A stretch of DNA of 64,000 nucleotides from Felis catus (lineage: Eukaryota). A program made the translations under genes and the position numbers. The notes below the pieces were generated by a model. That model searched no databases. It was not told the origin of the DNA and was given only the letters and a program-made list of their open reading frames with translations. Location: positions 992,001 to 1,056,000 of the forward strand of contig NC_058368.1 in assembly GCF_018350175.1 (NCBI RefSeq), in the 5' to 3' direction. Shown here in pieces: positions 3,001-59,313 of this stretch (positions within the stretch are counted from its first letter, which is position 1; each line of letters begins with the position of its first letter).

Positions 3001-3945
3001 CCACAGTCTCTCACTGACTGGTGATCAAGCACCCCTTTTTAGTTTCATGCCTCTGTCCACACCTGACCTCTACCCTGTCCATGTCCAAGCTGCCTGCCTA
3101 TCAGGGAGCACCTCCTTCCAGAGTTTTATCTCAGATGGAGCTGTGTTTCAAACCCCACACTTCAGAAACCTCCACGATTTGGACCCACGCCGACTCTTGC
3201 GGGAGGGTCTCACTGAGCAATAGCCAGGTGCCGGCTTGCCCCAGAAAATATTCATGTGATCGTGCAGTGGCAGAGGTTCAGAGATTATGGCAAATCACAA
3301 CACACAGTCCCCACCAGGTTTAGCCATGCTCTGGCATCTTTGTTTCAATACCAGCAAATATGGCTGCTCTCTGGGATCCACTGGGACCTTTCCCTGTGAG
3401 GAGCCCTTATGGTCTCTACCAAATGCACTCCATGCAGGGGAATCACTTCTCCCTATGTCGCACATGGAACCCTCAGACTCTGCTGCCTACTCCTGGGGAT
3501 TCACCCTCCTTCCTTACCAGAGCACCTCCAGGCACTCAGCCTCAAACCTTCAGACTCTGTGCTGCATTGTTTATAGAATCCTGGTGGTATTGAAACTTTC
3601 TCCTTTCTCCTTGTCAGTGGTTTTGGGGAACAGATTTCTTATTCAGTCCCCTGAGAGTGTTTTCACTCTTACTCTCTCTTTCTCTCCAGCTACTTTCAGG
3701 GGGAATGTTTTTCTTGCAACATCCCTATGTGCCTCACTCTCCCCCTTTCTCCTTCTCTTTATGTTCTCTCTCTGCAAAAATGGCGCCTTACCCTCTGTGG
3801 CTTTTCTCTCCCCCAGTTCACCTCTCCACACCATGTACCTGCCCAGTGCCCATGTGGCTCAAGTTATGCAGATTGTTGCATTAATCCCGAGATCAATTTG
3901 CTAGGTGTTCAAAATAGTTTGGTGTTGATCTAGGTGTGTTTCAAA
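1..3945 (-). mobile_element. Carnivore LINE-1, 5' part (5'UTR, degenerate ORF1, ORF2 endonuclease region), continuing beyond the window start
   Basis: Minus-strand translations such as TDVFRTFPPK, HKSALNKYKKIKII and WRLKNILLKNEWLNQEIKEEIKKYME are L1 ORF2 EN/post-EN motifs. ORF2 ATG is at ~1116 and ORF1 ATG at ~2327 (MSELEFQTTIIRIL just downstream). Multiple stops and frameshifts. A SINE is inserted at ~1716-1930 with TSD agatgtta(t/c)tcctttt. Confidence 0.93.
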
Positions 3946-9104: not shown

Positions 9105-10268
9105 TAATATATTTTTAAGTGTTTGTTTTAATTCCAGTTAGTTAACATACAGTATTATATTAGTTTCAGGTGTACAATATAGTGATTTGACAATTCCAAA
9201 TATTACTCAGTGCTCGTCATGGTAAGTGTCCTCTTAATCCCCTTCACCTATTTCACCCATTCCCATCCCCTTCCCTTCTGGTAACCATCAGTTTGTTCTC
9301 TATAGTTAAGAGTCTGTTTTTGCGGTGGGGGCACCTGGATGGCTCAGTTGGTTGAGCAACTGACTCTTGGTTTCAATTCAGGTTATGATCTCATGGTTTG
9401 TGAGCTTGAGCCCCACCTTGGGCTCTGCTCTGGCAGCATGGAGTCTGTTAGGGATTCTCTCTCCCTCTCTCTCTCTGCCCCTCCCTGCTCACTGTCTCTC
9501 ACTCTCTCAAAATGAATAAATAAAACAAATCTGGTGTTCGGTTTGTCCCTTTTTGTCTTTCATCGTTTGCTTCTTAAATTCCACAAATAAGTGAAATCAT
9601 ATGGTATTTGTCTTTCTCTGACGTATTTCACTTAGCATTATACCCCCTAGATCCATCCATGTTGTTGCAAATGGAAAGACATCATTCTTTTTTTATGGCT
9701 GAGTAATATTCCATTGTATGCATATATTACATCTTCTTTATCCATTTATCTATCAATAGACACTTGGGTTGCTTTCATAATTTGGCTATTGTAAATAATG
9801 GTGTAATAACCATAGGGGTGCATATATCTTTTTGAATGAGTGTTTTGTATTCTTTGTGTAAATATCCAGTAGTGGAATTACTGGATCATTTGGTAATTTT
9901 ATTTTAAATAATTTTATGTTTTATTTTAATTCCTCTTAGTTAATATTTAGTGTTATATTTTTCAGGTGTATGATATAGCAATTCGTTTCCATAATCACCT
10001 TGTGCTCATCATGACTATTTTCAATTTTTTGAAGAACCTCCATAACATTTCCTACAGTGGCTGCACAAGTTTACCTTCCCACTAACAGTGCACAAGGGTT
10101 CCTTTTTCTCCACATACTTGCCAACATTTGTTATTTCTCGCTTTTTTGATTTTAGCTATTCTGACAGGTGTGAGGTGATATCTCCTTGTGGTTTTGATCT
10201 GCATTTCCTTGATGATGAGTGATGTTGAACATCTTTTCATGTGTCTATTGGCCATCTGTATGTCTTCA
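9105..10268 (-). mobile_element. LINE-1 3' end (carnivore type), with SINE and a second short L1 tail nested
   Basis: Canonical L1 3' sequence (gtgaaatcatatggtatttgtctttctctgac, atggctgagtaatattccattgtatg, ggtgtgaggtgatatctc) with T-rich tail at ~9100. Confidence 0.9.
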
Positions 10269-10544
10269 ATACTTCATTTATATTTATGAAAGAGAATACC
10301 CGTATAATTTAATACATGCTGAAGCATTTAAGGACAAAGCAGCATTATGTCTGCAACTAAATCAAATCATTCTGGAAAAAAAAAAAACAAGTATGTGCAT
10401 ATAAAGAAAGAAAGCAACAAAGCAGATGATGCAAAATGTTAGCAATCAGTGAATCTGAGTAGAAAAGTTAAGCAGGAAATTTTTGTGTGAATACAACTCT
10501 TTATAGTTTGAAATTATTTCAAAATAAAAGACATTATCTTAAGC

Positions 10545-11085
10545 GGCATATCAGTGCCACATCAGTTCCAACCTCAGGAAGAAATGGAGACTATAGGTAT
10601 TAGCCTGACTACTGGAAGGGGTTCTTGACTAAAAGCCAGCCACATGGGCAGTATGTGATTGATCACTAATAAAAACTATGGACACCAAAAGCTTGATGAG
10701 TTTCCCTGGTTGACAGTACTTTGTGCACACCTCATGGCCAGGGAAAGGTAATACTAATCATGTTTCTATATGGAGAGACCAACCGGAAGATTTGCATTTG
10801 GACCCTTCCCAGACTCTGCTCAATATGTCTCTTCCCTTGTATACGTATATACGTTTTTCACGTATATCCCTTGTAAACGATATACATTTTTCACGTATAT
10901 CCTTTCCCTGTAATAATCTATGAATATAATAACTCTCTGTGAATTCTGTGAATCCTTCAGCAAATTATTGAAACTGAGGGTGGTTTTGGGAACCCCCTGC
11001 ACTTACATTTGGTTTCAGAAGTGAGGACAGTTCTTGTGGGAATTGTTTCCTCAGACCTTGCAGTTTGACTTTCTCCTTACCACAG
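10545..11085 (+). mobile_element. Old ERVL-class LTR (MER21/MER68-like), family tentative
   Basis: tgagtttccctggttgacagtactttgtg...gtgaattctgtgaatccttcagcaaattattgaaactgagggtggttttgggaacccc. Confidence 0.6.
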
Positions 11086-11447
11086 AAGATTGGAATAACA
11101 AGGGATTAGCTAGTTAAAAGTGAAGAGAATGCTAGAAAACACAGGAATATCAGATGTCACGAGTAGTTACCACCTTCAGGACTAAGATAGAATGCCCATG
11201 AAAGATACCTCTACCCACCCTGCCAGACCTTATTGGGTGGAGTGTGACAATAACTCACAGGATGGCAGAGAATGCACTATGGTGGTGCGGAGGTGGAATT
11301 TTCTGGAAATCTTTTTCCTGGAACTTAACTAGAATTCCCAGTGTTGTGGAAGTGCAATTTACAGGAGTCCACTGTCTGAACTTGCTGAGATTCAATCTTC
11401 AGGGTGCTGGGGAAAGTTAAAAAAAAATTTTTTTAATGTTTATTTTT

Positions 11448-11487
<40 letters not shown>

Positions 11488-11715
11488 GAGAGGGGAAGGG
11501 GCAGAAAGAGGGAGACACAGAATCTGAAGCAGGCTCCAGGCCCTGAGCTGTCAGCACAGAGCCTGACATGGGGCTCAAACTCAAACCTTGAGATCATGAG
11601 GTGAGCCGAAGTTGGACGCTCAACCCACTGACCCAAGGGGAAAGTTTTTAACAGGGATCTGTCTTAGCAGGGTAATTCCTACAAAATCTCCTAAGAGGAT
11701 GAATTCCAAAGGAAG

Positions 11716-12431
11716 CTACATCCCTCATTGTCGGAAGCCTCACACTCACAGGAATACCTTTCCTAACAGGCTTTTATTCTAAAGACCTAATCATTGAGAC
11801 CACCAACACATGGTATGCCAACGTCTAAGCCCTACTAATAACTCTCATCAGCACATCTCTAACAGCTACCGAATCATATTAGTATCTGAATCATATTCTT
11901 CTCACTCCTAGGACAGCCTCGTTTCAATTCCTTAATTTTAATCAATGAAAATAATCCCCTCCTAATCAACTCTATCCAACGTCTTTTAATCAGAAGTATT
12001 TTTGCGGAGTACCTAATTACTTACAATATCCTCCCAACAATTCCACAGATAACTATGCCTAATTATCTGAAATTAACTGCCCTTGCCATGACTATTACAG
12101 GTTTCATTCTGGCATTAGAAATAAACCTTGCAACTAAAAGCCTAAAATTTAAATATCCTTCAAACCTCTTCAAATTCTCTAATCCTCTAGGATACTTCCC
12201 AGTCATGTGCACCGCCTCCCACCAATAGCAAACCTAACTATAAGCCAAAAATCCGCATCAGTGCTACTAGATATAATCTGATTAGAAAATGTATTACCAA
12301 AATCCATCTCCTACTTTCCTATAAAAACATCACCTGCTGCATCTGGCCAAAAAGGATTAATTAAACTATACTTCCTTTCTTTTATGATCATCCTAATTCT
12401 TGGCCCATTCCTACTTAATTTCCACGAGTAA
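11716..12431 (+). pseudogene. MT-ND5: NUMT ND5 3' portion
   Basis: Translates (mito code) [29 protein letters not shown] at 11826-11828 replaces the conserved Trp. Local duplication gaatcatatt at 11871-11897. Confidence 0.97.
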
Positions 12432-12931
12432 CCTCCATAATTACTAACATACCAGTAAGCAAGGATCAACCAGTGACAATAACTAATCAGGTTCCATAGC
12501 TATATAAAGCTGTGATTCCTATAGCTACTTCACTAAAAAATCCTAAATCACCTGTATCATAAATAACTTAATCACCTGCACCATTAAACTTAAATACAGC
12601 CTCAACCTCTTTTAAAATATAACAAGCCGTTAACAATTCTGCTAATACCCCTGTAATAAATATTCCTAACACAGTCTTATCAGATGCTCAAACATCAGGG
12701 TATGGTCCAGTAGCCATAGCCGTAGTATAACCGAACACCGCAAGCATACCCCCCAAATAAAAAGACCATTAAGCCTAATAAAGAACCCCCCCCAATTTAA
12801 TACAATTCCACAACCAATACCACCAGCCACAATCAAACCAAATCCACCATCAACTGGAGAAGGCTTTGAAGAAAAACTGACAGACCTAATCACAAAAATA
12901 GTACTTAAATAAATACAATGTACGTTACCAT
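12415..12931 (-). pseudogene. MT-ND6: NUMT ND6
   Basis: VSFSSKPSPVDGGFGLIVAGGIGCGIVLN on the minus strand; frameshifted. Confidence 0.96.
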
Positions 12932-13000
12932 TATTCCCACACGGAATCTAACCATGATGAATGATATGAAAAACCATCGTTGTATTTCAACTATAAGAAC
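12932..13000 (-). tRNA. MT-TE: NUMT mt-tRNA-Glu pseudogene
   Basis: gatatgaaaaaccatcgttgtatttcaactataagaac between ND6 and CYTB. Confidence 0.93.
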
Positions 13001-13003
13001 TTA

Positions 13004-14131
13004 ATACCCAACATCTGAAAATATCACCCACTCATCAAAATCATCAATGAATCATTCATCAATCTCCCAGCTCCATCCAACATTTCAGCATGATGAAATT
13101 TCAGCTCCTTATTAGGAGTCTGCCTGATCCTACAGTTTCTGACAGGTCTATTCCTAGGCATGCATTATATACATCAGACACAGCAACCGCCTTCTCATCG
13201 GTAACCCACATTTGCCGCGATGTAAACTACGGCTGAATCATTTGATATATACATGCCAACGGGGCTTCTATATTTTTCATCTGCTTATTTATGCATGTAG
13301 GCCGAGGCATATACTATGGCTCCTATACCTTCTCAGAAATATGAAACATCGGAATCGTACTGTTATTTACAGTCATGGCTCCAGCCTTCACAGGTTAGGT
13401 TCTACCATGAGGCCAAATATCCTTCTGAGGAGCTACTGTCATCACCAACCTCCTATCAGAAATCCCCTACATCGGAACTAATTTAGTAGAATAAATCTGA
13501 GGAGGATTCTCAGTAGACAGAGCCACCCTGACACGATTCTTTGCCTTTCGCTTTATTCTCCCATTCATTATTTCAGCCCTAGCAGCAGTCCACCTTCTAT
13601 TCCTACACCAAACAGGATCTAACAACCCCTCAGGAATAGTATCTGACTTGGATAAAATCCCATTCCACTCATACTACACAATCAAAGACATCCTGGGTCT
13701 TTTATTCCTACTCCTAACCCTACTTGTCCTATTTTTCACCTCATCTAGGAGACCCAGACAACTACACCTCCGCCAACCTCCTAAACATCCACCACACATT
13801 AAGCCTGAATGATGGTTCCTATTCGCGTATGCAATCCTACGATCCATCCGTAATAAACTAGGAGGAGTCTTAGCCCTAATCCTCTCTATCCTAATTCTAG
13901 CAATCATTTCCTCACTTCACACTTCAAAATGAGAAATGATATTCCGACCACTTAGCCAATGCCTATTCTGATTCTTAGTAGTGGACCTACTAACCGTAAC
14001 ATGAATTGGAGGACAGCCAGCAGAATATCCTTTCATTACCATTGGTCAATTAGCCTCCATCCTATACTTGTCAACTCCTAATCTTCATACCTATTTCTGG
14101 CATTATCGAAAATCATCTTTTAAAATGAAGA
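13004..14131 (+). pseudogene. MT-CYB: NUMT cytochrome b
   Basis: [36 protein letters not shown] and IKPEW motifs. Start ATG changed to ATA, TAG at 13396, TAA at 13492, several indels, terminal AGA at 14129-14131. Confidence 0.98.
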
Positions 14132-14202
14132 GTCTTTGCAGTATATAAAATACCTTGGGTGTTGTAAACCAAAAAAGAAGAATATCTGCCCTTCCCAAAA
14201 CT
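14132..14202 (+). tRNA. MT-TT: NUMT mt-tRNA-Thr pseudogene
   Basis: gtctttgcagtatat...ttgtaaacc immediately after CYTB. Confidence 0.9.
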
Positions 14203-14268
14203 TCAAGGAAGAAACAGCAGCCCCACCATCAGCACCCAAAGCTGAAATTCTTTTTAAACTATTCCTTG
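14203..14268 (-). tRNA. MT-TP: NUMT mt-tRNA-Pro pseudogene
   Basis: ccaccatcagcacccaaagctgaaattct...aaactattccttg. Confidence 0.93.
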
Positions 14269-15323
14269 CAATACCAGAAATCGACACGATAACTTTCATA
14301 ATTCACGTATTGCATACTCTCGTACTGTGCTTGCCCAGTATGGCCTCATTTCCCGGTGAGGACGCAGACCTGAGCATGTACAATATATCTATTCATATTA
14401 CATAAAACACACTATGTATAATTGGGCATTAACTGATTTCGTGGACGATTAATTCCTCTATGGACCTCAACTGTCCATAAGAGCTTCATCACCTAGCCTC
14501 GAGAAACCAGCTATCCTTGCTTGAATGCATACCTCTTCTCCTCCGGGCCCATTTCAACGTGGGGGTTTCTGTATTGGAACTATACCGGCCATCTGGTTCT
14601 GACCTCAGGGCCATCCAATTATTTACTCCAATCCTACAGTTATCTCAAACAGGACATCTCGATGGACTAATGACTAATCAGCCCATGATCACACATAACT
14701 GTGGTGTCACGCGTTTGGTATTTTTTAAATTTAGGCCGGGGGGGGGGGGGGGGGGGGTACTTGCTATGATTCAGCTACGACCGTAAAGGTCTCAAGGCAG
14801 TCAAATAACTTGCAGCTGGGCTTATTCACTATGCTACGTCTCCACATTCACACAAACAAGGTGTAATTCAGTCAATGGTCACAGGACATACACTTTAACG
14901 CTTCAACCGGACATACGTCCACGTACACACACACGCACACATACACGCACGCACACACGTACGTACACGTACACGCACGCACACATACACGTACGTACAC
15001 GTACACACGTTTTTATCCGACCGATAATTAGCTTAACCAAACTCCCCTTATCCCCCGAAACCTTATGATGAGAATATGTATTCATTATTGTCCTGCCAAA
15101 CAACAAAAACAAGACTAAATTCGCATCCAAACATAAGGCTCAAGTACAAATCTTTATGAACACTCCAAAAATCCCAATTAAACATCAGGCGCAAATACCA
15201 GTGTGACACCTTGATTCACAGCTATCTATAGATACACAACCTTGAGCTCCAATTCGTCCCTATTGAGCAATATTCTCTCACAACTAATCCCATAAATCAA
15301 TCGACCAGCCCAGCATATTCCCT
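14269..15323 (+). other. NUMT mitochondrial control region (D-loop) with short left domain and RS3-type repeat
   Basis: Central conserved domain (cctcgagaaaccagc, ccgggcccat, catctggttc, gactaatgactaatcagcccatgatcacacataactgtgg), CSB1-like attcagtcaatggtcacaggacata, and (ac/gt) RS3 array at ~14911-15010. Confidence 0.95.
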
Positions 15324-15397
15324 GTTAACGTAGCTTAAATACACAAAGCAAGGCACTGAAAATGCCTAGCTCATCTAGGCATCAGACTCCATAAACA
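15324..15397 (+). tRNA. MT-TF: NUMT mt-tRNA-Phe pseudogene (internally rearranged)
   Basis: gttaacgtagcttaa...aaagcaaggcactgaaaatgcctag...gactccataaaca. Confidence 0.93.
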
Positions 15398-16322
15398 GAA
15401 AGGTTTGGTCCTAGCCTTTCCATTAAGTAAATAGGATTGCATGTGCAAACCTCTGCACCCCGGTGAAAACGCCCTCTAAACCGTTAATGATCTAAAAGAG
15501 CGGGTATCGAGCACACAACAATAGAGCTCGTGGCGCCTTGCTTAGCCACATCCCCACGAGATACAGCAGCGATAAAAAGTAGGCCGTGAATGAAAGCTCA
15601 ATTAAGCCATATTAAATGAGGATTGGTAAATTTTGGACCAGCCACCGCGGTCACACAGTTAAGCCGAACTGATAGACCCATGGCATAAAGCGTGTTATAG
15701 AGGACCCCCACGCTAACGTTAAACTTTAACTAGTCTGTAAAAAGCTACAGTTAACATAAAAATATAGCACGAAAGTAACTTTAACACCTCCGACCACACG
15801 ATAGCGAAGACCCAAACTGGGATTAGATACCCCACTATGCTTAGCCCTAAAGTCAGCTAATTAAACAAATCTATCCGCCAGAGAACTATTAGCAACAGCT
15901 TAAAATAAAAAGGACTTGATGATGCTTTATATCCCTCTAGAAGAGCCTGTTCTATTATCGATAAACCCCGATCTACCTCACCATCCCTTGCTGATCCAGT
16001 CTATGTAGCGCGATCTTCAGCAAACCCTAAAAAGGAAGCAAAGTAAGCACACGTATCTTAACACAAAAAAGTTAGGTCAAGGTGTAACCTATGAGGTGGG
16101 AAGTAATGTGCTACATTTTCTGTACTAGAACACTTTCCACGAAGCCCTTAGGAAATTAAGAACCAAAGGAGGATTTAGTAGTGAATTGAGACTAGAGAGC
16201 CTCACACTGCCCGTGCCCTCCTCAAGTGACAAAACCCAAAGACCATCTATTCAAACTATAAAAACACAAGAGGAGACAAATGGTAACAAGGTAAGCATAC
16301 TGGAAAGTGTGCTTGGATAAAG
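15398..16322 (+). rRNA. MT-RNR1: NUMT 12S rRNA pseudogene
   Basis: aaaggtttggtcctagcct, ccagccaccgcggtca, aaactgggattagataccccactatgcttagccctaaa and gtaacaaggtaagcatactggaaagtgtgcttgga; short deletion near 16200. Confidence 0.97.
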
Positions 16323-16390
16323 CAAGATGTAGCTTAAACAAAGAATCTGGCCTACACCCGGAAGATTTCACATCAAACTGACCATCTTGA
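16323..16390 (+). tRNA. MT-TV: NUMT mt-tRNA-Val pseudogene
   Basis: caagatgtagcttaaacaaag...cctacacccggaagatttca...catcttga. Confidence 0.92.
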
Positions 16391-17943
16391 GCCAAAACTA
16401 GCCCAAACAACCATATGTTCAACTAACATAAAATAACAAATCAAAACATTTAGGTAATTCTTAAAAGTATCGGAGATAGAAATTTAACTTGGCGCTATAG
16501 AGAGAGCACCATAAGGGAAAGATGAAAGAAAAATTAAAAGCACCATACAGCAAAGATTACCCCTGATACCTTTTGCATAATGAATTAGCCAACCTAACAA
16601 AGAGAACTTAAGCTAAGCCCCCTGAAACCGGACGAGCTACCTATGAACAATCTTTACAGGATGAACTCATCTATGTTGCAAAACAGTGAGAAGATCTGTA
16701 GGGAGAGGTGAGAAGCCTAACGAGCCTGGTAATAGCTGGTTACCCAGAACAGAATTTTAGTTCAACTTTAAACCTACCTAAAAAACCCCAAAATTCTAAT
16801 GTAAGTTTAAAATATAATCTAAAAAGGTACAGCTTTTTAGAATGAGGATACAACCTTCTTTAGAGAGTAAGCATAAACATAACCATAGTTGGCTTAAAAG
16901 CAGCCATCAGTTAAGAAAGCATTCAAGCTCAACAATTAAAACATCTTAATGTCAAAAATATGCAACCAACTCCTAACTTAATACTGGTTAATCTATTTAA
17001 CAATAGAAGCACTAATGCTCGTATGAGCAACAAGAAATATTTCTCCTTGCATAAGCTCATATCAGAGCAGATAACACTGATAATTAACAAGATAAAAATA
17101 ATCTAACTATAAACTAAATATCAAACCAATTGTTGACCTGACACAGGCATGCAACTAAGGAAAGATTAAAGGAAGTGAAAGGAACTTGGCAAATGCAAAC
17201 CCCGCCTGTTTACCAAAAACATCACCTCTAGCATTTCTAGTATGAGAGGCCCTGCCCGCCCAAGGACGTTCATTAATCGGCCGTGGTATCCTGACCGTGC
17301 AAAGGTAGCATAATCACTTGTTCCCTAAACAGGGACTAGTATGAATGGCCACATGAGGGTTTTACTATCTCTTACTTCTAATCCTTGAAACTGATCTTCC
17401 TGTGAAGAGGGGGGAGTAGGACAAGAAGACCCTAAGAGGCTTTAATTCACTGGCCCAAAGAGACTACACCAATACAACCAATAGGGACAACAAATCTCCC
17501 CATGGGCCAACAATTTAGGTTGGGGTGACCACGGAGAATAAAATAACCTCCGAGGGATTTAGATCTAGACTAACCAGTCAAAAGTATAACATCATTTATT
17601 GATCCAAAATACTTGATCAATGGCACAAGTTACCCTGGGCATAACAGCACAATCCAATTTTAGGGTCCATATCGCCAGGAGGGTTTATGACCTCGATGTT
17701 GGATCAAGACATCCCAATAGTACAGCAGCTATCAAAGGTTTGTTTGTTCAACGATTAAAGTCCTACATGATCTGATTTCAGACAGGAGCAATCCAGGTCG
17801 GTTTCTACTTATCAAACAATTTCTCCCAGTATGAAAGGACAAGAGAAATGAGGCCTACTTTACCAAAGCACCTTCAACCCAATAGATGATTTAATCTCAA
17901 TCTAAACAGTTCACCCATCTACATTGCCTGAGAGTTTGCGTTC
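16391..17943 (+). rRNA. MT-RNR2: NUMT 16S rRNA pseudogene
   Basis: cgcctgtttaccaaaaacatcacctctagc, gaccgtgcaaaggtagcataatcacttgttc and gacctcgatgttggatca motifs. Confidence 0.97.
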
Positions 17944-18018
17944 ATTCGGGTGGCAGAGCCCCATAATTGCATAAAACTTAAACCTTTATAATCAGAGGTT
18001 CAACTCCTCTCCCTAACA
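17944..18018 (+). tRNA. MT-TL1: NUMT mt-tRNA-Leu(UUR) pseudogene
   Basis: gggtggcagagccc...aattgcataaaacttaaacc...cagaggttcaactcctctccctaaca. Confidence 0.92.
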
Positions 18019-18020
18019 AA

Positions 18021-18980
18021 ATGTTTATAATCACCAATCTTTCATTAATTATTCCTATCCTCCTCACCATAGCTTTCCTAACATTAGTCGAACCTAAGCT
18101 ATCAGGATATATACAACTTCGCAAAGGACCAAACATTGTAGGGCCATATGGGCCATGTGGTCTACTCTAACCTATTGCAGACACCGTAAAACTCTTCACC
18201 AAAGAACCCCTCTGACCCTTCACATCCTCTATATCCATATTCATTAGAGCACCTATCTTAGCTTTCTCATTAGTCCTAACCATATGAATTCCTCTACCCA
18301 TACCATATCCACTCATCAACATAAACCTAGGAGTACTGTTTACACTAGCTATGTCAAGCCTTGCTGTCTACTCAACCCTCTGATCAGGATGAGCCTCAAA
18401 TTCAAAATATGCTTTCATTGGAGCCCTATGAGCTGTAGCCCTAACAATCTCATACAAAGTTACATTAGCCATTATTCTCCCATCAGTATTGCTAATAAAT
18501 GGGGTCTTCACATTAGCCACACTAGTTACCACCCAAGAACACATATGACTAATCCTCCCACATGACCCTTGGCCATAATATGATTCATCTCAACATTAGC
18601 AGAAACCAATTAAGCCCCATTTGATCTAACAGAGGGAGGATCAGAACTCATTTCCGGATTCAACGTTGAATATGCAGCAGGCCCCTTCGCCCTCTTTTTC
18701 CTAGTGGAATATGCTAATATCATCATAATAAATATTCTCACAACAATCTTATTCTTCAGAGCATTTCACAACCCATACATACCAGAACTAGATACCATGA
18801 ACTTTACCGTCAAAACCCTATTCCTAACATTCTCCTTCCTATGAATTCGAGCATCCTACCCACGATTCTGATATGACCCACTCATACATCTTCTATGAAA
18901 AAATTTCCTACCCCTCACCCCTATGCACATGACATGTATCTTTGCCCATCATCACAGCAAGTATTCCACCCCAAACATAA
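18021..18980 (+). pseudogene. MT-ND1: NUMT ND1
   Basis: ATG at 18021; [26 protein letters not shown] and APFDLTEG motifs; TAA at 18168 and 18611; 9-bp tandem duplication at 18141-18158. Confidence 0.97.
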
Positions 18981-19052
18981 GAATGAAATATGTCTGATAA
19001 AAGAGTTACTTTGATAGAGTAAATAATAGAGGTTTAAATCCTCTTATTTTTA
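18980..19052 (+). tRNA. MT-TI: NUMT mt-tRNA-Ile pseudogene (3' end duplicated as SINE TSD)
   Basis: gaaatatgtctgataaaagagttactttgatagagtaaataatagaggtttaaatcctcttattt. Confidence 0.93.
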
Positions 19053-19273
19053 GGGCGCCTGGGTGGTGCAGTCGGTTAAGCGTCCGACTTCAGCCAGGTC
19101 ACGATCTCGCAGTGCGTGAGTTTGAGCCCCGCGTCGGGCTCTGGGCTGATGGCTCAGAGACTGGAGCCTGTTTCCGATTCTGTGTCTCCCTCTCTCTCTG
19201 CCCCTCCCCCGTTCATGCTCTGTCTCTCTCTGTCCCAAAAATAAATAAGCGTTGAAAAAAAAATTCAAAAAAA
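19053..19273 (+). mobile_element. Young cat-type CAN-SINE inserted in the NUMT
   Basis: Near-consensus CpG-rich SINE; 17-bp TSD aaatcctcttattt(t/c)ta at 19036-19052 and 19274-19290. Confidence 0.97.
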
Positions 19274-19288
19274 AAATCCTCTTATTTC

Positions 19289-19358
19289 TAGAATTAATGG
19301 GACTCAAACCTAATCCCAAGAATTCAAAAATCTTGCTACCTTATTACACCATATTCTA
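19289..19358 (-). tRNA. MT-TQ: NUMT mt-tRNA-Gln pseudogene
   Basis: tagaat...aacctaatcccaagaattcaaaaatctt...ttacaccatattcta between Ile and Met. Confidence 0.88.
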
Positions 19359-19359
19359 C

Positions 19360-19398
19360 AGTAAGATCAGCTAAATAAGCTATTGGGGTATGGGCCCA
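19360..19398 (+). tRNA. MT-TM: NUMT mt-tRNA-Met 5' half (truncated, anticodon loop inverted)
   Basis: agtaagatcagctaaataagctattggg followed by gtatgggccc. Confidence 0.85.
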
Positions 19399-19984
19399 GT
19401 TGGAAGCTGCTGGTCACCATTCACTACAGGACCTAGGCCCTCTAGCAGTTGCAAGCACTGTAAGAGCTTGATTCTGGAGAAACTACCTATGTTGCAGGAA
19501 GCGGGCACTGGAGTTGTATGTACCTAGGAGCCTGGTGAGCAAACAACTGGACCACATACAAAACCTTCTCTTCCTGCAATTAACTCCTGAAGCACCTCTA
19601 CAGACCCATCTTAACATTAAGCCAGCTGGAGAAGGAAAAACAAGGGACCCGATCCATTTCACAGAGTAGGCCAAAGGGTAGATTTGAAGCTAAGAAGGAA
19701 TAAATTGGTAACTAACATAGGTGATGTCAGCTTACGTCATCCATTATAAAAATCCACATTTACCTAGTGGCTTTATCATCTGCTGAGGCCAAATCGCCTA
19801 GGTCCTTTATTTCAGAAGGAGTTGCCTTAACTTTAACTCCTCTCGATCTAAACATGATCCTTATTATTGTTTTATTTATATAGTACATAGTTATTATATT
19901 TTCTGACATATATACCCATATTCTTTGTTTGCCATTGCTTCCCAAATGACACTCTTTGACTCTTGTTTAGAATTCTGTTTATTG

Positions 19985-22825
19985 GCAGAAAATCAACTAG
20001 GAAACGATGGCTTAGAATTACACACTGGACCAGATGAACTTCACAGATATATTCAGAACATTTCCTCCTAAAGCAGCAGAATACACATTCTTTTCAAGTT
20101 CACATGGAACATTCTCCAGAATAGATCACATACTGGGTCACAAATCAGCCTTCAACAAGTACAAAAAGATTGAGATCATACCATGCATATTTTCAGGACA
20201 CAACAGTATGAAACTTGAAGTCAACCACAAGAAAATATTTGGAAAGACCACAAATACATGGAGTTTAAAGAACATCCTACTAAAAAATGAATGGAGAGGC
20301 GGGGAGTGGGTGTGTGTGTGGGGGAATCCCCGGATGACACAGTTGGTTGAGCATCTGACTTTGACTCAGGTCATGATCTCAAAGTTTGTGAGTTCAAGCC
20401 CCACATTGGGCCCACTGCTGTCAGTGCAGAGCCTGCTTCAGATCCTCTGTCCCTCTCTCTCTGCCCCTCCCCCACTTGTGCTCTCTCAAAAATAAATTAA
20501 AAAAATTTTTTAATGTTTATTTTTGAAGGAGAAAGAGACAGAGTGTGAGTGGGGGAGGGGCAGAGAGAGGCAGACACAGAATGTGAACCAGTCTTCAGGC
20601 TCTGAGCCGTTAGCAAAAGAGTCCGTCATGGGGCTCGAACTCATGAGCTGTGAGATCATGACCTGAGCCGAAGTCAGATACTTAACTGATTGAGCCCCCC
20701 ACCCCTCTCAAAAATAAATGAAAAAAAAAAAAAAAAAGAATGCATTAACCAGGAAATTAAAGAAGAAATGTAAAAGGACAGGGAAGCAAATGAAAACAAG
20801 ACACTCCAACACCTTTGGGATGCAGCAAAGGCAGTCCTCAGAGATAAGTAGATTGCAATATAGGCCTAAATCAAGAAGCAAGAAAAGTCTCAAATACATA
20901 ACCTAACTTTATGCCTAAAGGAGCTAGAAAAGGAACAGCAAATAAAGCCTAAAGCCAGCAGAAGAATGAAAATAGTACTGATTAAAGCAGAAATAAATGA
21001 TGTAGAAACAAAAAAATTGTATAACAGATCAATGAAACTAAGAGCTGGTTCTTTGAAAGAATTAATATAATTGATAATTTCCTAGCCAGACTTACTGAAA
21101 AGAAAAGAAAGGACCCAAATAAATAAAATCACAAATGAAAGAGGAGAGATCACAATCAACACTACACAAATATAAACAATTAGAAGGGAATACTATGAAA
21201 AACTATATGCCAACAAACTGGGCAATCTGGAAGACATGGACAAATACCTAGAAACTCACACACTACCAAAACTGAAACAGGAAGAAATAGAAAATGTGAG
21301 CAGTCCCATAACCAGCAAAGAAATTGAATCGGTAATCAAAACCTCCCAACAAACAAAAGTCCAGGGCCAGATCGATTCCCAGGGGAATTCTACCCGGCAT
21401 TTAAAAAAAATTTTTTTAACGTTTATTTATTTTTGAGACAGAGAGAGACAGAGCATGAACGGGGGAGGGTCAGAGAGAGGGAGACACAGAATCCAAAACA
21501 GGCTCCAGGCTCTGAGCTGTCCGCACAGAGCCCGACGCAGGGCTCAAACTCACGACGCAGGGCTCAAACTCACGAGCCGTGAGATCATGACCTGAGCCGA
21601 AGTCGGCCGCTTAACCGACTGAGCCACCCAGGCGCCCCTACCCGGCATTTAAAGAAGAGTTAATACCTATTCTTCTCAAGCTGTTCCAAAAAATAGAAAT
21701 GGAAGGAAAACCTGCAAACTCTTTCTATGAGGCCAGTGTTACCTTGATTTCGAAACCAGACCAAGGCTCCACCAAAAAGGAGAATTACAAGGCAATATTC
21801 CTGATGAAACTGGATGCAAAATTCTCAACAAGATACTGGCAAATCAAATCTAACAGTATATTAAAAGAATTACTCACCATGATCAAGTGGGATTTATTGC
21901 AGTGGGCTGCAAGGGTGGTTCAATATTCATAAATCAATCAACATGATACCCCAAATTAATAAAAGGATAAGAACCATATGATGCCATCAATAGGTGCAAG
22001 AAAAGCAACTGACAAAAATATAACATCCGTTCTCAATAAATACCGTCAACAAAAGTAGGGAGAGATGGAACATACCTAAACATCATAAAGGCCATATACG
22101 AAAGACCCACAGTTGATATTATCCTCAAGGAAGACAAACCGAGAGCCTTTCCCCTGCAGTCAGGAACAAGACAGGGATGTCCACTCTCACCATTACCATT
22201 TAACACAGTACTGGAAGTCTTAGCCTCAGCAATCAGACAACAAAAAGAAATAAAAGACATCCAAATTGACAAGGAAGAAGTAAAGCATTCACTATTTGCA
22301 GATGACATGATACTCTATGTAGAAAACCCAAAAGGCTCCACCAAAAAACCGCTAGAACTGATATATAAATTCAGCAAAGTCACAGGATATAAAATGAACT
22401 TACAGAAATCTGTTGTATTTCTATATACCAATAATGAAAAAGAAATCAAGGAATCCATCCCATTTGCAATTGTACCCAAAACAATAAGATATTTAGGAAT
22501 AAACCCAACCAAAGAAGAAAAAGTTCTGTACTCTGAAAACTATAGAACACTTCTGAACACTTATGAAAGAAATTGAAAAGGACACAAAGAAATGGAAAAA
22601 CATTCCGTTCTCATGGATTGAGAGAACAAACATTGTTAAATGTCTATTCTACCCAAAGCAGTGTATACATTTAATGCAATCCCTATCAAAATACCAACAG
22701 CCTTTTTCACAGAGCTAGAACAAGCAATCGTAAAATTTGTATAGACCACAAAAGCCCACAAATAGACAAAGCAATCCTGAAAAAGAAAAGCAAAGCTGAA
22801 AGCATCACAATTCCAGACTTCAACA
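19985..22825 (+). mobile_element. Internal LINE-1 ORF2 fragment (EN C-terminus through RT), degenerate, with three SINE insertions
   Basis: TDIFRTFPPKAAEYTFFSSSHGTFSRIDHILGHK, ANSFYEASVTLISKP, gtcaggaacaagacagggatgtccactctcacca and ctatttgcagatgacatgata (LFADDMI) RT motif. Confidence 0.96.
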
Positions 22826-23515: not shown

Positions 23516-25150
23516 TTTTTCAACGTTTTTTATTTATTTTTGGGACAGAGAGAGACAGAGCATGAACGGGGGAGGAGCAGAGAGAGAGGGAGACACAGAA
23601 TTGGAAACAGGCTCCAGGCTCTGAGCCACCAGCCCAGAGCCCGATGCGGGGCTCGAACCCACGGACCGCGAGATCATGACCTGGCTGAAGTCAGAGGCTT
23701 AACCGACTGCGCCACCCAGGCGCCCCCTATTTCTTAAAATGTCTAATAATTTGTTTTTTTAAAGTAGGCTCCACAATCAACATAGAGCTTGAACTCACGA
23801 CCCTAAGATCTAGAGTTGTATGCTCTACTGACTGAGCCAGCCAGGCACTCCCAAAGTCTAATAATTTTGAAAAATATGTTTTAGTATTTGTCATTCAGGG
23901 TCAGTTTTCCAAGATATGTAGGTGTCCTGTCAATGTTTTAATTTTGGTATAGAATTTTCTTGAATTATATTTTAAAGTATTTATTCTTTTTCCTTGCTTC
24001 GATTTTTTTCTTTGATGACTCTTATGAGAGACAGATGTTATTATACTATGTATTATATTTTATTGTTTTATAATATTTACGTATTATTTATTGTACTCAT
24101 ATTTATATACATATAAGATCTTCCCTGCCTGTCTTCTCTATTTGCTCTTTCTCTTGAATATTTTTCATTTTTCTTCATTTCTGTTTGACTTTCCCCCTTT
24201 TCTTTTTTTCCTCTTAAGACATTTTACAGAGCTTCTTCACTTTATGTTTCTTCTAGTTTTTCCTCTGTTTCCGAAGTGATTCTTTTCTGAATTGCTACCT
24301 TATTTCTGATGTTTTTCTGGTTCTTATGTTGTTTTTTCAATTCTTCATAGTTTTTAATGTCTTTTAACGAGTTTTAAAAATATGAAGGTGTTGTTTCTAT
24401 CTTGTGTTCCAAGCATAAGTTCCTGATGTCTTCTTATCTTCTTTTGGGAACTTATCTGGTTTCTTAATCTCTATTTAACAAAGTACATTAACTATGTACA
24501 AGATTTAACACGGATCTATTTTTGTTTTCTATTTTTACTTTAAATTCGTTGTGTAAACTTTAAGAGAAGAGGTAGAATTTAATGGTTTTGACAATTTTAC
24601 AGCTCTATAGCGCCATCTTCTGTTGTTTTTATGAGAAGTTACGGAGCAGCTTACTTTCTGAGATATCCTGATCCTGTCTCTGCACTGTAACTTGTTTTGT
24701 CTGTATCCTCTTTTTCCTCTGTGTTCTTTGTCTATGAACTGCTTAAATCTTCAACATTCCCAGGAGGAGAGATTTAGCTGGTTATTTCTGAGAGTTTATG
24801 AGACCATCTCTCTCAGTACCTTTTTATCTTTCGGAAGACACCTGCGCAAAATACTGGAGTTGCAGATTTTATTCTCAAACTGTTTCATGGGGGCTTCCCA
24901 ATAAATACCTGTTAGTAACTGAAGATTTTAGTTCTCTCTGGTCCTCTATTTCTTCCCTGGTTCCTCTTGCACAGATGCAGATACTGTTTATCTCCAACAG
25001 TTTTCGGTGGTTTGTTGCTATTTGCTTATGCTTTGGCGGTCATGGCATTGCTATATCACCTCATTTTGTTGTAGATGTTATTCGAGGGTTGTTTTTATTC
25101 ATTCTAGTTCTGTGTGGGCTTTTTTTTAACAGAAAAACATTAATATTAAC
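22830..25150 (-). mobile_element. Very old L1M/HAL1-like remnant
   Basis: T-rich strand bias and ORF1-like remnant aaatttgctggctataagattcctagctgacattctttt; highly diverged. Confidence 0.45.
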
Positions 25151-32598: not shown

Positions 32599-34520
32599 AT
32601 CCCAAGCAGGCTCTGCACTGTCAGTGTAGATTCCAACACAGCTGACAAAGGGTTCAAACTCATGAACTGTGAGATTATGACCTGAGCCAAAATTAAGAGT
32701 CAGACACTTAAACATCTGAGCCACCCAGGCACCCCATGAACAAACTGATTATTAAGTTTATACGGAAAGGCAAAAAGACCCCAAATAGCCAACACAATAC
32801 TGAAAGAGAACAAAGTTGGATTGATATTAAACTTCAACACTTACAAAACCACAGTAATCTGAACAATGTGGTATTAGCAACAAAATAGAGAAAGAGATCA
32901 ATGGAACAGAATGTAGAGCCCAGAAATTGACCTTCATGAATAGGGGTGCCTGGCTGGCTCAGTTGGTAGAGCACGTGACTCTTGATCTTGAGGTTGTAAG
33001 TTTGAGCCCCATGTTGGATGTAGAGATTACTTAAAAATAAAAAAAGAAAAAAAAAAGAAATTGACCTTGATGAATATAGATCAACTAACTTTTGACAAAG
33101 AGCAAAAGCAGTGCAATGGAGTAATAATTGTCTTTTCAACAAATGATTCTGAAACAACTAGGCATCCGCATACAAAAAAATAAATAAATAAGAATAAAAG
33201 AAGCTATCCACACACCTCACACACTTCACAAAAATTAACTCAAAATGGATCACAGGCCTAAATGTAAAATGCAAAATTATAGAACTCCAAGAAGATAACG
33301 TAGCAGAAAAACTAGATACCTTGGGTACAGAGATGACATTTTAGATATAATACAAAAGGCACAATCTAGGAAAAAAATAATAAATAAAATGAATTCTATT
33401 AAAATTAAAATCTTTTGCTCTGGGAGAGGAAATGTCAAGAGAATGAGAAGAGTACCCAGATTGGGAGAAAATATTTGCAAAAGGTTTGCCTGATAAAGGA
33501 ATGTTGTCCAAAACAGACAAAGGATTCTTAAAACACAACAATAAGAAAACACACAACCTGATTAAAAAGGTGGGCAAAGGTCTTAACAAACCCTTCACCA
33601 AACAAGATATATAGGTGGAAAATAACCATATGAAAAGATGTTCCACATCATATGTCATTACGGAAATGCAAACAAAACCAGTGGGATATCACTACACACC
33701 TATTAGAACGGCCAAAATCTGGAATACTGACAATATTGAATCTGGCAAGAGTGGGTAGCTGTAGGACCTCCCACTCATTGTTTTGGAAGACAGTTTGGCA
33801 GCTTCTTACAAAACTAAACACGCTCTTACCATAAGATTCAGCAGCCATGCTCTTTGATATTTACCCAAGTGATTTGAGAACTTATGTTCACACAAAAACC
33901 TACATACAGATATTTATAGTAGCTTCATTCATAATTGCCAAACTAGGAAACAGCCAAGATGTCCTATGGTCGGTAAGTGAGTAAATAAAACTTTGGTACA
34001 TACAGACAATGGAAAATTATTCTGTGCTAAAAATAAATGAACTAGAAAGCCATGAAAGGACATGGGGGAAACTTAAGGCATATTACAAAGTCAAAGAAGC
34101 CAATCTGAGAAGATTATATACTGTATGATTCCAAATATGTGACATTTTGGAAAAGGCAGAACTGTGGAGACAGTAAAAAGATCCGTGGTTGCCAGAGTCA
34201 GGTGGGAGAGGGATGAATATTAGCCTGAGCACAGCGTTTCAGGGCAGTGAAAATCCTCTGTATGATACTATAATCATACATTTTTCTAAACCCATAGAAT
34301 ACTCAAAGCAAGGGTGAACCCTAAGGTAAACTACAGATCTGAGGTAATAATAATGTGTCAATATAGGTCCATCAATTGTAATAAATGTACCACTCCAGTT
34401 GGAGATGTTGATAGGGGATGATATGTATGTGAGGGGACAGAAGGTGTATGGGAAATCTCTGTCCCCCTCCTAATTTTGCTGTGGATCTAAAACTGAAAAA
34501 ATAAAGGCTTAAAAAGAAGA
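31755..34520 (+). mobile_element. Old L1MB/L1MC ORF2 3' part and 3'UTR with nested SINEs
   Basis: [21 protein letters not shown] and QWDITTHLLE-type L1 ORF2 remnants; terminal ctaaaactgaaaaaataaa. Confidence 0.9.
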
Positions 34521-37305: not shown

Positions 37306-38640
37306 TGTGATGATTTAATGTATCGACGTTGCGGCCATAGGGTGCCCAGACATTTGGCTGAACATTATTCTGAATGCATCTTTAAGGGTGTTTCTAGATA
37401 AGATTGATATTTTGTTAGTTAATTAATTAATTAAGAGACACAGAGAGAGAGGGAGAGAGAGAATCCCAAGCAGACTCGGCACAGCTAGCATGGAGCCTGA
37501 CTCGGGGCTCAGACTCACAAACCATGAGATCATGACCTGAGCCCAAATCAAGGGTCAGTCGCTTAACCAACTGAACCACCCAGGTGCCCTGAGGTTGATA
37601 TTTGAAACAGTAGACTGAGTAAAGCAGGTTGCCCTCCTCAGTTGGGTGGGTCCCATGCAATCCATTGAAGGCCTGAATAGAATAAAAGGGCTGAGAGTAA
37701 GGGAGAATTTGATCCACCTGCCTATCTTCAGGCTGGGATATTGGTCTTCACCTGTCTGTGGACTAGGACTCTGGTTGGATCTCGCGTGATCGGCTCTTCC
37801 TGTTCTCCAGCTCTAGGATTTGGGCTAGACTCACACCATGGTCTCTTCTGCTTCTTAGGCCTTCAGACTTGGACTTAAACTATGTTATGGGGTCTCCTGC
37901 ATCGCCAGCTTGCCTCCTGCAGATCTCGGAACTTTTCCGCCTTGTTAAAATGAAACAACAGGTCCAAAGTGGAGTCATTTTTGCTAAGCCCCACAAGGTT
38001 TAAGACTTACATTTTCAGGTTCTCCCAGGAGTGGAGTTTTAAAACATTTTTTTAATGTTTATTTTTGAAAGAAAGAGAGAGACACAGTGCGAGCGGGAAG
38101 GGGTAGAGAGAGAGGGAGACAGAGAATCCAAAGCAGGCTCCAGGCTCTGAGCTGTCAGCACAGAGCCCGACACGGAGCTCGAACCCACAGACTATGAGAT
38201 CATGACCTGAGCCAAAGTCGGATGCCCAACCAACCGAGCCACCCAGGCGCCCCAGGGGCGGAGTTTTAAACCCATCAACCTGGAAGGTACTGATAGCATT
38301 AGTCAGGTAATCTGCATGACAAGACTCCCTGTTTTTCCCCCTAAAAGAAGGTAACCCTGCCCGAAACAATCTTTTCTTTTGCTAATTAATCTCCTTATCT
38401 CAGCCTGTTTCTGCCTATAAAATCCTGTCATTTTGTACATCTCCTTGGAGTTACCTTAGATTTGCTGGATGGGATGCTGCCCAACTTATGAGTCTTTAAA
38501 TAAAACCTATTAGATCTTTAAATTTTCTTTGAATTTTGTTTATTTAAACAGCCCTCACAGTCTCATAAGCCAATTCCTTAAAATCTTTCTCTTCATACGT
38601 TCCATTGCTTTTGTTTCTCCAGAGAACCCTGATTAATACA
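37306..38640 (+). mobile_element. MLT2-type ERVL 5' LTR, interrupted by SINEs and another solo LTR (37943-38550)
   Basis: gggtgcccagacatttggctgaacattattctg...caatccattgaaggcctgaatagaataaaag...agagaaccctgattaataca. Confidence 0.88.
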
Positions 38641-52592: not shown

Positions 52593-54330
52593 GGATTTTT
52601 CTTTACAGGCATATTGTGTACAATTCATTCTATTGAAGAAGAAACTGAAGCTCAGAAAGGTCTAGGGTCACAAAGCTAATGAGTGGTGGGATCAGTGTCC
52701 ACTCCAACTCTGCATTCTTTCTAAATTGATACATTGCTTTTCCAGAGACATTGTTAATCAGCTGCATTACAGTTTTATCAAGTGTAAAGCTTGTCGTTAG
52801 GAGGGAATAAGGAACTCATATATTTAGGAAAAATGACAGCTTAAATCTCTATTTCTAAAAATGAATTTGGGGCGCCTGGGTGGCTCAGTTGGTTAAGCAT
52901 CAGACTCTTGATTTCTGCTCAGGTCATGATCTCCAGGTTCGTGGGATCAAGTCCTGCGTCAGGCTCTATGTTGAGGGTGGAGCCTGTTTGGGATTCTCTC
53001 TCCCTCCCTCTCTGCCCCTCCCCATACATGTGCACACGTTGATGTTCTCTCTTGCTCTCTTTTCTGTTTCTCAAAATAAACTGAAAAAAAAAAATGAGTT
53101 TTTCAACCCATAGTTGATTCTGGATTACTCAGTTTCTGACATCATCTTGTGTTTTTACTTCTGTTTTAGAACTTGATTTTATCCCTGATTTGCTTTCTTC
53201 AGAGTAGTGTTTTTCAAACCACAGTTTATAATCCATGAAATCAACTTGGAATGATGAAACCACTATTTATTTTTTTAAAAATGGAAGAAAACAGTATAGA
53301 CTAGATTTAAATAGACTAGAATAGAAAATATTGAATTCCATCTTAGGTAATAAAGGAAATAATTCTACTACTTAGGTAATAAAGGAAATAAAGGAAACTT
53401 TTGTTATCCAGTAATGAATATAGGTGACTTTGCAATTGGTCTCTACGCATAATATATATCCTAGTGGTTGTCATGGTCAAAAAGTTTATAAGCCACTGCT
53501 CCAGAGTGTATTATTGGACTGTGTTTTGAATTATCTAAGATGATGTATTTAAGAGTTTAATTTGAAGAATTAGGAGAAGACTATCCTGGAGGGGCAGAAT
53601 GCTGAGGTGGTTAAGAGTATGACTGTGGGGTCAAGAATCCTGGGATCATGAGTCCCTCTCCATCACTTTGTAGCTATGTGACCTTGAATAAGTTCCCTAA
53701 CCTTTTTTTTTATTCTTCTTTTTATTTATTTATTTTTAAACAGCAAATGCTACACCCCATATGGGACTTGAACCCATGATCCCAAGATTGAGGATAGCTT
53801 GCTCTACCGACTAAGCCAGCCAGGTGCCCTGCCCCTCTAACCTTTTTTTGCTTCGGTTTTCTCATATGTAAAAGTGGGAGAGTGATATTTACTTCGTAGA
53901 GTTCAGAAGATAATGAGTTATTATTCACAATGAACATACACAATTCCTGGAACTATAAATACTATACAAGCAGTTTATTAAGTAAAATTGCACAATTGAC
54001 TTGTTTTAATTTTTCAGGACTTCATCTTTTCTTCTCAATGGTAGAACAACATTATTAAGATTTTTATTGGTATAATATGATACCAAGCATCGCCCAGTAT
54101 AAGCAAATTAATAAAAGTCAAACATGCTAAAACTAACAATTTTTATTTGATATTATTTTTAATTCCACTAGAAGCAGTCTACCCAGGTGTACTATTCTTG
54201 TAAAGCAATTAGCCATGTTGAGCTTCTTTCACTTTCTCTTCCTTCTCCCACAGAAAAACTTCCCCAGTGCTTCAACAGTTAAATTATTGCTTTTTATGTC
54301 CTTCTCTTTTTTTTTTAAAGTTTATTTATT

Positions 54331-58500: not shown

Positions 58501-59079
58501 TCCTCCCGCAGCCATGACGGGAGGTGGGGGGACTATTCCCCACGGGGGTGAGGCGAGGGTGGAAGCGCTCCCACTCCCCGCGGCACGTTCGGGAACCCAC
58601 TTCACCCGCTGCCCCGACCTCCCACTTTCAATCGCTCCAGCCCGTGCCCGGGCTCGCCCCTCTCGGGGGGCTTCAGGAACTGGACAGGGAGGGCGTTGGG
58701 GACATCGAGGCCGCGTCTCTCCTCGGGCAGGGTCGTTGGGAGCGGCTGCAGCAGCCTGGGCGCCCAGGCCCGAGCCAGGGCAGGCGGCCACGGCCTCAGA
58801 TTCGCGGACCGTCCCGGGCCCTGGAGGGCACCCCGGGCGCCCAGGGCCGGAGCCCGTGGCCGGTGCAGCGGGCGGCGAAACTCGGGCTGCCTGACCCTGA
58901 CGGACCCGGGGGTGGGGGCGGGGTGGGAGGCGGGGGTAAGGAGGGGAGGGGACGCGGCCGAGGGCCGAGAGCGGGCGGAGGGGGGGAGTGGAACGGCGAC
59001 GCCGGGGGGGTGTGGCCTGCGCCTGACGGACAGCCTTTCGGACCACCCCCCCGAGGGGGGTCCTGAAGGAAGGCAGATG

Positions 59080-59152
59080 TAGCCAATGGACGTGCCCGAG
59101 GCGCCGCGGCCCGCCTTTCCGGCCAGCCAATGAGGGCGCGGAGGGCGGGGCC
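59080..59152 (+). promoter_or_regulatory. TATA-less core promoter: two CCAAT boxes, ETS-like site, GC box
   Basis: agccaatgg at 59081, tttccggc at 59116, agccaatga at 59125, gagggcggggc at 59141. Confidence 0.75.
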
Positions 59153-59169
59153 TCTCCGGGCTCGGCCGC

Positions 59170-59313
59170 ACCGCCGCCTCCTCCGTCTCCTCCGCCTCCT
59201 CCTCCTCACCAGCGCTAAACCCGGGACTGGACCGAGCGGAGTTGTGCGTGTTGCCGAAGGGGGGTGGGCCGGGGGAGGGGAGGTTCGTTCCGCGGAGCCG
59301 CAGCCAGAACCGG
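59170..59313 (+). other. Putative non-coding first exon of an unidentified gene
   Basis: Downstream of the CCAAT/GC boxes; ends at donor-like cgg|gtgagg (59313/59314); no ATG; start position is a guess. Confidence 0.5.

Follow-up and report, generated by a model that had tools for sequence, protein, structure and literature searches.

Mitochondrial DNA copies in the nucleus (NUMTs) of felids include large blocks with which we compare the one described here, a decayed copy of mitochondrial DNA (mtDNA) at positions 11716-19387 of a 64,000-nucleotide stretch of Felis catus DNA (the window; NC_058368.1, positions 992,001 to 1,056,000 of the forward strand, assembly GCF_018350175.1). The closest described locus is Fcat_numt1-3 in Table S3 of Uvizl et al. 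(PMC10764098), which lies at NC_018723.3:995,029-1,004,375 and is composed of Fcat_numt1 (mt 12877-15449, 81.1% identity to cat mtDNA), Fcat_numt2* (mt 16409-3775, 82.9%) and Fcat_numt3 (mt 3758-3874, 87.3%). The same table holds a second block spanning the D-loop, at mt 12611-6506 in the cat and mt 12610-6499 in the hyena, and its authors count the cat among the species rich in D-loop NUMTs; in dogs, coverage of the D-loop by NUMTs is described as reduced (PMC11507379). The supplement of Tamazian et al. (PMC4138527) gives 430 BLAST hits for cat NUMTs and mentions a "4.3 kbp numt in chromosome A1". Further, the Lopez numt of Felis is a 7.9-kb tandem unit on chromosome D2 (10.1101/2023.06.19.545568; PMC10655372), and the Panthera numt (DQ151551) is described as ~12.5 kb long with ~90% identity to mtDNA (PMC11235123; PMC12491944).

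The block in the window is very probably a decayed fragment of early-feliform mtDNA that is catalogued as Fcat_numt1-3 and has no function. The sequence examination revealed a colinear copy that starts in the 3' part of ND5, crosses the control region and ends in tRNA-Met. The mammalian mtDNA order is kept throughout, with ND5, ND6 (reverse strand), tRNA-Glu, CYTB, tRNA-Thr, tRNA-Pro, the control region, tRNA-Phe, 12S, tRNA-Val and 16S, followed by tRNA-Leu, ND1, tRNA-Ile, tRNA-Gln and the 5' part of tRNA-Met. About 7.43 kb of the ~7.67-kb span is derived from mtDNA, and a short interspersed element (SINE) accounts for the remainder. ND5 begins at about residue 370 (tblastn with a Puma ND5 query, table 2, E 9e-45), tRNA-Glu was called by both ARAGORN and Rfam, and 16S gave an Rfam large-subunit (LSU) match with E 8e-70. 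In addition, an intact, seal-like mtDNA sequence in a metagenome contig (L001:1-2064; its CYTB is 96% identical to that of Mirounga angustirostris) was aligned unbroken to 12749-14732, a range that begins in ND6 and ends in the control region, at 75% (1,551/2,073 columns). The block is present once in the window and its setting is nuclear, since SINEs and L1 sequence occur in both flanks, one SINE lies inside the block, and the GC skew shifts at both edges. All four reading frames (ND5, ND6, CYTB and ND1) are broken by stops or frameshifts. The original prediction of a decayed NUMT of ~7.4 kb at 11716..19398 with many indels and stops was right about colinearity, mtDNA length and the presence of lesions, while the right edge lies at ~19387 rather than 19398 and the SINE inside the block had gone unmentioned.

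The mitochondrial footprint of the block, 12877-3874 over the D-loop on the + strand, shares the outer breakpoints and the interruption in tRNA-Ile with Fcat_numt1-3. With its right end set at the end of tRNA-Pro (14270), the 2,555-bp span of Fcat_numt1 starts at 11716, and when Fcat_numt3 was anchored on the second copy of the SINE target duplication, it occupied 19274-19387 (114 bp), with the end of Fcat_numt2 at 19053. The SINE and its target duplication also reproduce the 221-bp gap of the catalogue and its 18-bp overlap in mitochondrial coordinates (3758-3775). We take NC_018723.3 to be chromosome A1. The 4.3 kbp A1 numt of Tamazian et al. is probably this locus, its size agreeing with the 4,350-bp Fcat_numt2 segment; the match is by size, as the passage in that supplement carries no coordinates. 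The locus is thus already catalogued and is not new, and with this match the novelty first supposed for it was lost. It is a real but ordinary NUMT, and the cat has several hundred NUMT segments. Table S3 records the locus by coordinates only. No paper devoted to the locus was found in the literature that was covered, to which PMC12129016 and PMC4691742 contributed nothing on it, and Antunes 2007, Lopez 1994, Kim 2006 and the NUMT files of PMC12491944, which lie outside that coverage, may describe or date it.

The source lineage was examined with an ND5 tree of 236 columns and 40 rows, comprising the NUMT, 16 felids, 15 other feliforms and 8 caniforms. The NUMT was placed within Feliformia (99/95) and outside Felidae (16 felids, 100/98), with an unresolved basal position. 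At the seven scorable ND5 residues that are diagnostic of felids, it has the felid state in three and the state of other feliforms in four. The source therefore lay in Feliformia, outside crown Felidae, and a stem-felid origin is possible. Accordingly, the idea that the copy preserves ancestral felid mtDNA is kept as regards an old feliform source, but the position outside crown Felidae and the 3/7 felid-diagnostic residues make that source stem-felid or early feliform. The CYTB copy is also feliform and is equally near to felid, viverrid and herpestid sequences (102-105/136 variable columns). Because the 120 rows listed in each CYTB search included only one felid species, CYTB cannot resolve the placement within Feliformia. 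As a separate observation, a cytochrome b labelled as shrew (Cryptotis; P0168) falls in a 90% cluster with three Prionailurus planiceps, through either loose clustering or a mislabel.

The copy was dated from proteins, since no felid mtDNA was present at the DNA level among the contigs searched; the control-region pattern gave 1 locus in the metagenome contigs (L001) and 0 in the viral contigs. Decay was counted at non-degenerate positions of codons that are invariant among relatives, using 118/120 CYTB proteins (two that were not 379 residues long were excluded) and 39/120 listed ND5 proteins chosen for taxon coverage. At these constrained sites, 19/369 positions in CYTB and 7/164 in ND5 were changed, a total of 26/533, which gives a Jukes-Cantor (JC) distance of 0.050 +/- 0.020. 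If 2e-9 changes per site and year are assumed as the neutral rate, the time is ~25 Myr (15-35), and we suggest an age of roughly 15-35 Myr. When CYTB was compared with L001, four of its five indels shifted the frame, three stops stood in register, and three of the eight Arg CGN codons read TGA. The CpG observed/expected ratio was 0.46 in the CYTB copy vs 0.78 in the intact CYTB of L001; the CpG loss and the CGA to TGA pattern fit methylation-driven nuclear decay.

We also measured the share of 31-mers sampled from 9500-19400 in DNA data sets, and this share was 0.77-0.80 in 20 of the 24 listed runs, which came from 11 studies under two organism labels; the remaining four runs are unindexed additions. 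Since mtDNA that is ~18% diverged would retain almost none of these 31-mers, the holders should carry the nuclear copy. As to its formation, a nuclear chromosome would have taken up a single 7.4-kb piece of circular mtDNA, the donor being an early feliform that belonged to the cat lineage or stood close to it. Capture would most likely have occurred through double-strand-break repair by end joining, as is general for NUMTs, and the source would have been DNA rather than RNA. The copy was presumably dead on arrival and decayed in a neutral manner with loss of CpG; the SINE entered tRNA-Ile later, and the insertion is probably by now common or fixed in cats.

Several observations weigh against this reading. 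Fcat_numt1-3 spans 9,347 bp vs ~7,670 bp here, with the extra 1.68 kb in the control region, and no Fcat row extends over the central domain found in our copy (window 14271-15323 vs NC_018723.3:997,583-999,692). The match to Fcat_numt1-3 was made by coordinates and not by alignment to the cat reference. The ND5 tree was built without Prionodon, hyaenid or Felis sequences, a clade of the NUMT and felids is neither shown nor rejected (p-AU 0.20), and the nearest ND5 by raw identity is that of Genetta (189/226), with the felids at 179-186. The age depends on the rate assumed, with 1.5-2.5e-9 per site per year giving 34-20 Myr. The data-set evidence is a share of 31-mers in the block and not reads spanning the junctions, for which the support is indirect and comes from these data sets and from the like breakpoints in a published cat assembly; one holder may be the source of the window itself. 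The 1.68-kb surplus could be explained by an assembly difference, by an insertion polymorphism or by a repeat expansion, and because of this difference in total span the same insertion need not mean identical sequence. The surplus, the coordinate-based match and the coverage of Table S3 (42 of the ~313 rows for the cat) would also suit an old NUMT of the same kind that was inserted separately and is uncatalogued, or a duplicate of the A1 locus. However, four independent lengths agree within 1-2 bases, the SINE gap included, and we consider such a separate insertion very improbable. Mitochondrial reads joined into a nuclear contig would be another source of such a block, as the catalogue holds 6-10-kb rows at 99% that are possibly artefacts of this kind in cat assemblies. 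Such an assembly artefact would seem unlikely because 20 DNA data sets hold the 31-mers of the block; together with 81-87% identity to cat mtDNA, stops, frameshifts and a SINE with its target duplication, this largely refutes it already, and we give it next to no credence.

The remaining alternatives concern the age and a possible use of the copy. The insertion might be older than the split between Feloidea and Viverroidea, dated to 29.7-27.0 Mya (PMC7886153), and then be common to civets, mongooses or hyenas, which would change the age only. The unresolved basal feliform position, the four non-felid ND5 states and the equal distances of CYTB are compatible with this, and the 81.1% and 82.9% identities to cat mtDNA are close to those of the block for which the hyena has a counterpart of the same footprint (80.3%, 82.8%). 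On the other hand, no block with the same footprint was found in 416/416 hyena rows (PMC10764098 Table S3), which favours insertion after the split, though weakly, the hyena assembly being in many scaffolds. The nearest hyena block, Hhya_numt375-382 (mt 11917-3895), was tried as an orthologue and rejected, as it starts ~960 bp earlier and is more decayed (70-80%, long rows). We regard a pre-split insertion as possible but doubtful. Finally, a co-opted role of the copied control region or rRNA genes can be considered, such as regulation of a CpG-island gene ~40 kb downstream. Proximity to the CpG island at 58-60.5 kb is all that speaks for this, whereas the changes at constrained coding sites are as neutrality predicts and none of the 20 holders is on record as RNA, the search having been directed at DNA and RNA not having been searched for. 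Co-option is therefore very improbable, and we infer that no function is indicated.

Detailed comparison of the block, read as an early-feliform fragment, with the other large felid NUMTs revealed clear differences. The Lopez numt is likewise a large NUMT of the cat, is comparable in length and also contains control-region, rRNA and ND1 sequence. However, that numt begins in the 3' end of the control region, reaches COII and is tandemly repeated, whereas this copy extends from ND5 to tRNA-Met, is present singly and shows far more decay. The Panthera numt, which likewise is a large felid NUMT and which we take to start in ND5 and to cross the control region, is longer, younger and genus-specific, whereas this copy has 7.4 kb, matches cat mtDNA at 81-83% and is placed outside crown Felidae. 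The ends, copy number and decay thus bear out an insertion that is independent of both and much older; an older, independent insertion had been proposed. The second D-loop-spanning block (Fcat_numt118-120 / Hhya_numt106-115, mt ~12610-6500) is likewise old and several kb long, starts in ND5, crosses the D-loop and has comparable identity to cat mtDNA, but it has other breakpoints, lies on another chromosome, reaches COX1 and has a hyena counterpart. It is 10 kb long, has nearly the same ends in both species and is probably one insertion older than ~27 Myr. The original prediction had singled out the crossing of the D-loop; with this second block catalogued in cat and hyena, the crossing is not special. 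The NC_018729.3 block and the "6.9 kbp numt on B4" of Tamazian et al. were also considered as matches and were rejected, as their breakpoints differ. Fcat_numt24 and Fcat_numt125 (6.1 and 10.2 kb, 99% to mtDNA) could represent either NUMTs of very young age or mitochondrial sequence that was wrongly assembled into the reference.

The control region is continuous in the copy, with a conserved central domain at ~14490-14730, a G17 run and an RS3-like tract of ~94 bp at 14915-15008. A full control region had been expected, and a stretch that contains the promoter region and extends from tRNA-Pro to tRNA-Phe would most simply derive from a DNA fragment, as first proposed. No 80-bp RS2 array was found in this control-region copy: TRF detected no 80-bp period, and in a search for RS2-type repeats the best 30-nt self-match at lag 60-99 was 15/30, a value matched by 90/100 shuffles. 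Living domestic cats have 3-12 RS2 units (10.1101/2023.06.19.545568 / PMC10655372). The array may have been lacking in the source or lost afterwards, and both are possible. In a tentative reading that is less likely than its opposite, the locus would record stem-felid mtDNA as it was 20-30 Myr ago, on the long branch that separates linsangs from living cats; its control region would be older than RS2, and the 1.68-kb difference would be a real structural polymorphism within that control region. If so, the locus would represent a stage of the lineage without a living representative, and felid mtDNA trees could be rooted, and the origin of RS2 dated, with its help.

The block had also been expected to carry barcoding primer sites. 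When we searched it with a 12S pair and a CYTB pair, all four primers tested had sites with 0, 1, 1 and 3 mismatches, and these sites were correctly oriented and spaced. The contamination risk that had been attached to these sites is nevertheless low, because a single copy that differs from cat mtDNA by ~18% and contains many stops is easily recognised. The NUMT template is outnumbered by mtDNA in amplification, and rare co-amplification is possible. In felids, 43/46 cases of NUMT contamination concern Panthera and were attributed by the authors to a much younger numt (PMC12491944). The locus could act as the outgroup when felid mtDNA is compared, and its presence or absence could mark early splits among feliforms.

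Table 1. Features of the NUMT in window coordinates.
Feature	Position	Strand	Evidence and remarks
3' ND5 pseudogene, from ~residue 370	11716..12431	+	frameshifts near 11870-11890 and 12205-12210; internal stops; left junction ~11716
ND6 pseudogene	12415..12931	-	frameshifted, stops
tRNA-Glu remnant	12932..13000	-	ARAGORN; Rfam
CYTB pseudogene	13004..14131	+	5 indels, 3 in-register stops, 3/8 Arg CGN codons CGA to TGA
tRNA-Thr (+) and tRNA-Pro (-) remnants	14132..14270	.	L001 alignment; span arithmetic; Fcat_numt1 row ends here
Control-region copy, 1,053 bp	14271..15323	+	L001 alignment over left part; repeat scan
tRNA-Phe, 12S (from 15399), tRNA-Val (16323), 16S (~16395), tRNA-Leu(UUR) (~17944-18018)	15324..18020	+	
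ND1 pseudogene	18021..18981	+	stops; frameshift near 18560; short duplication near 18140-18160
tRNA-Ile as far as the SINE	18984..19049	+	Rfam; target duplication copy 1 = 19036-19049
Can-SINE-type SINE	19050..19273	+	14-bp target duplication
Target duplication copy 2, tRNA-Ile end, tRNA-Gln (-), 5' tRNA-Met	19274..19387	+	right junction ~19387; = Fcat_numt3, 114 bp

The SINE that splits tRNA-Ile is bordered by a perfect target duplication and is 92-94% identical to four further copies within the window. It landed after the NUMT, and we take its class to be the Can-SINE type of carnivores. At the junctions of the NUMT itself, direct repeats of only 4-7 bp, which are chance-sized, and no longer target duplication were found. 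Another SINE, on the reverse strand at 11409-11646, stands 70 bp to the left of the NUMT and is bordered by a 10-bp target duplication. No long frames are present in the flanks at 10540-11715 and 19388-19760, which resemble an old long terminal repeat (LTR) element with internal sequence, possibly MER21-like; the insertion site of the NUMT may lie inside this element. Decayed L1 ORF2-like sequence, broken by several SINEs, occupies 19950-22800 and starts ~560 bp right of the NUMT.

Farther downstream, the CpG island at 58000-60600 (GC ~0.72) is the probable promoter with untranslated first exons of a + strand gene, and no coding exon was recognised between it and the end of the window. A possible fit to the tip of cat A1 is the ZMYM2 region. 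The tRNA calls at 23637-23721, 38163-38248, 53752-53826 and 32948-33020 are probably SINE heads, and the first two overlap SINE copies that were found.

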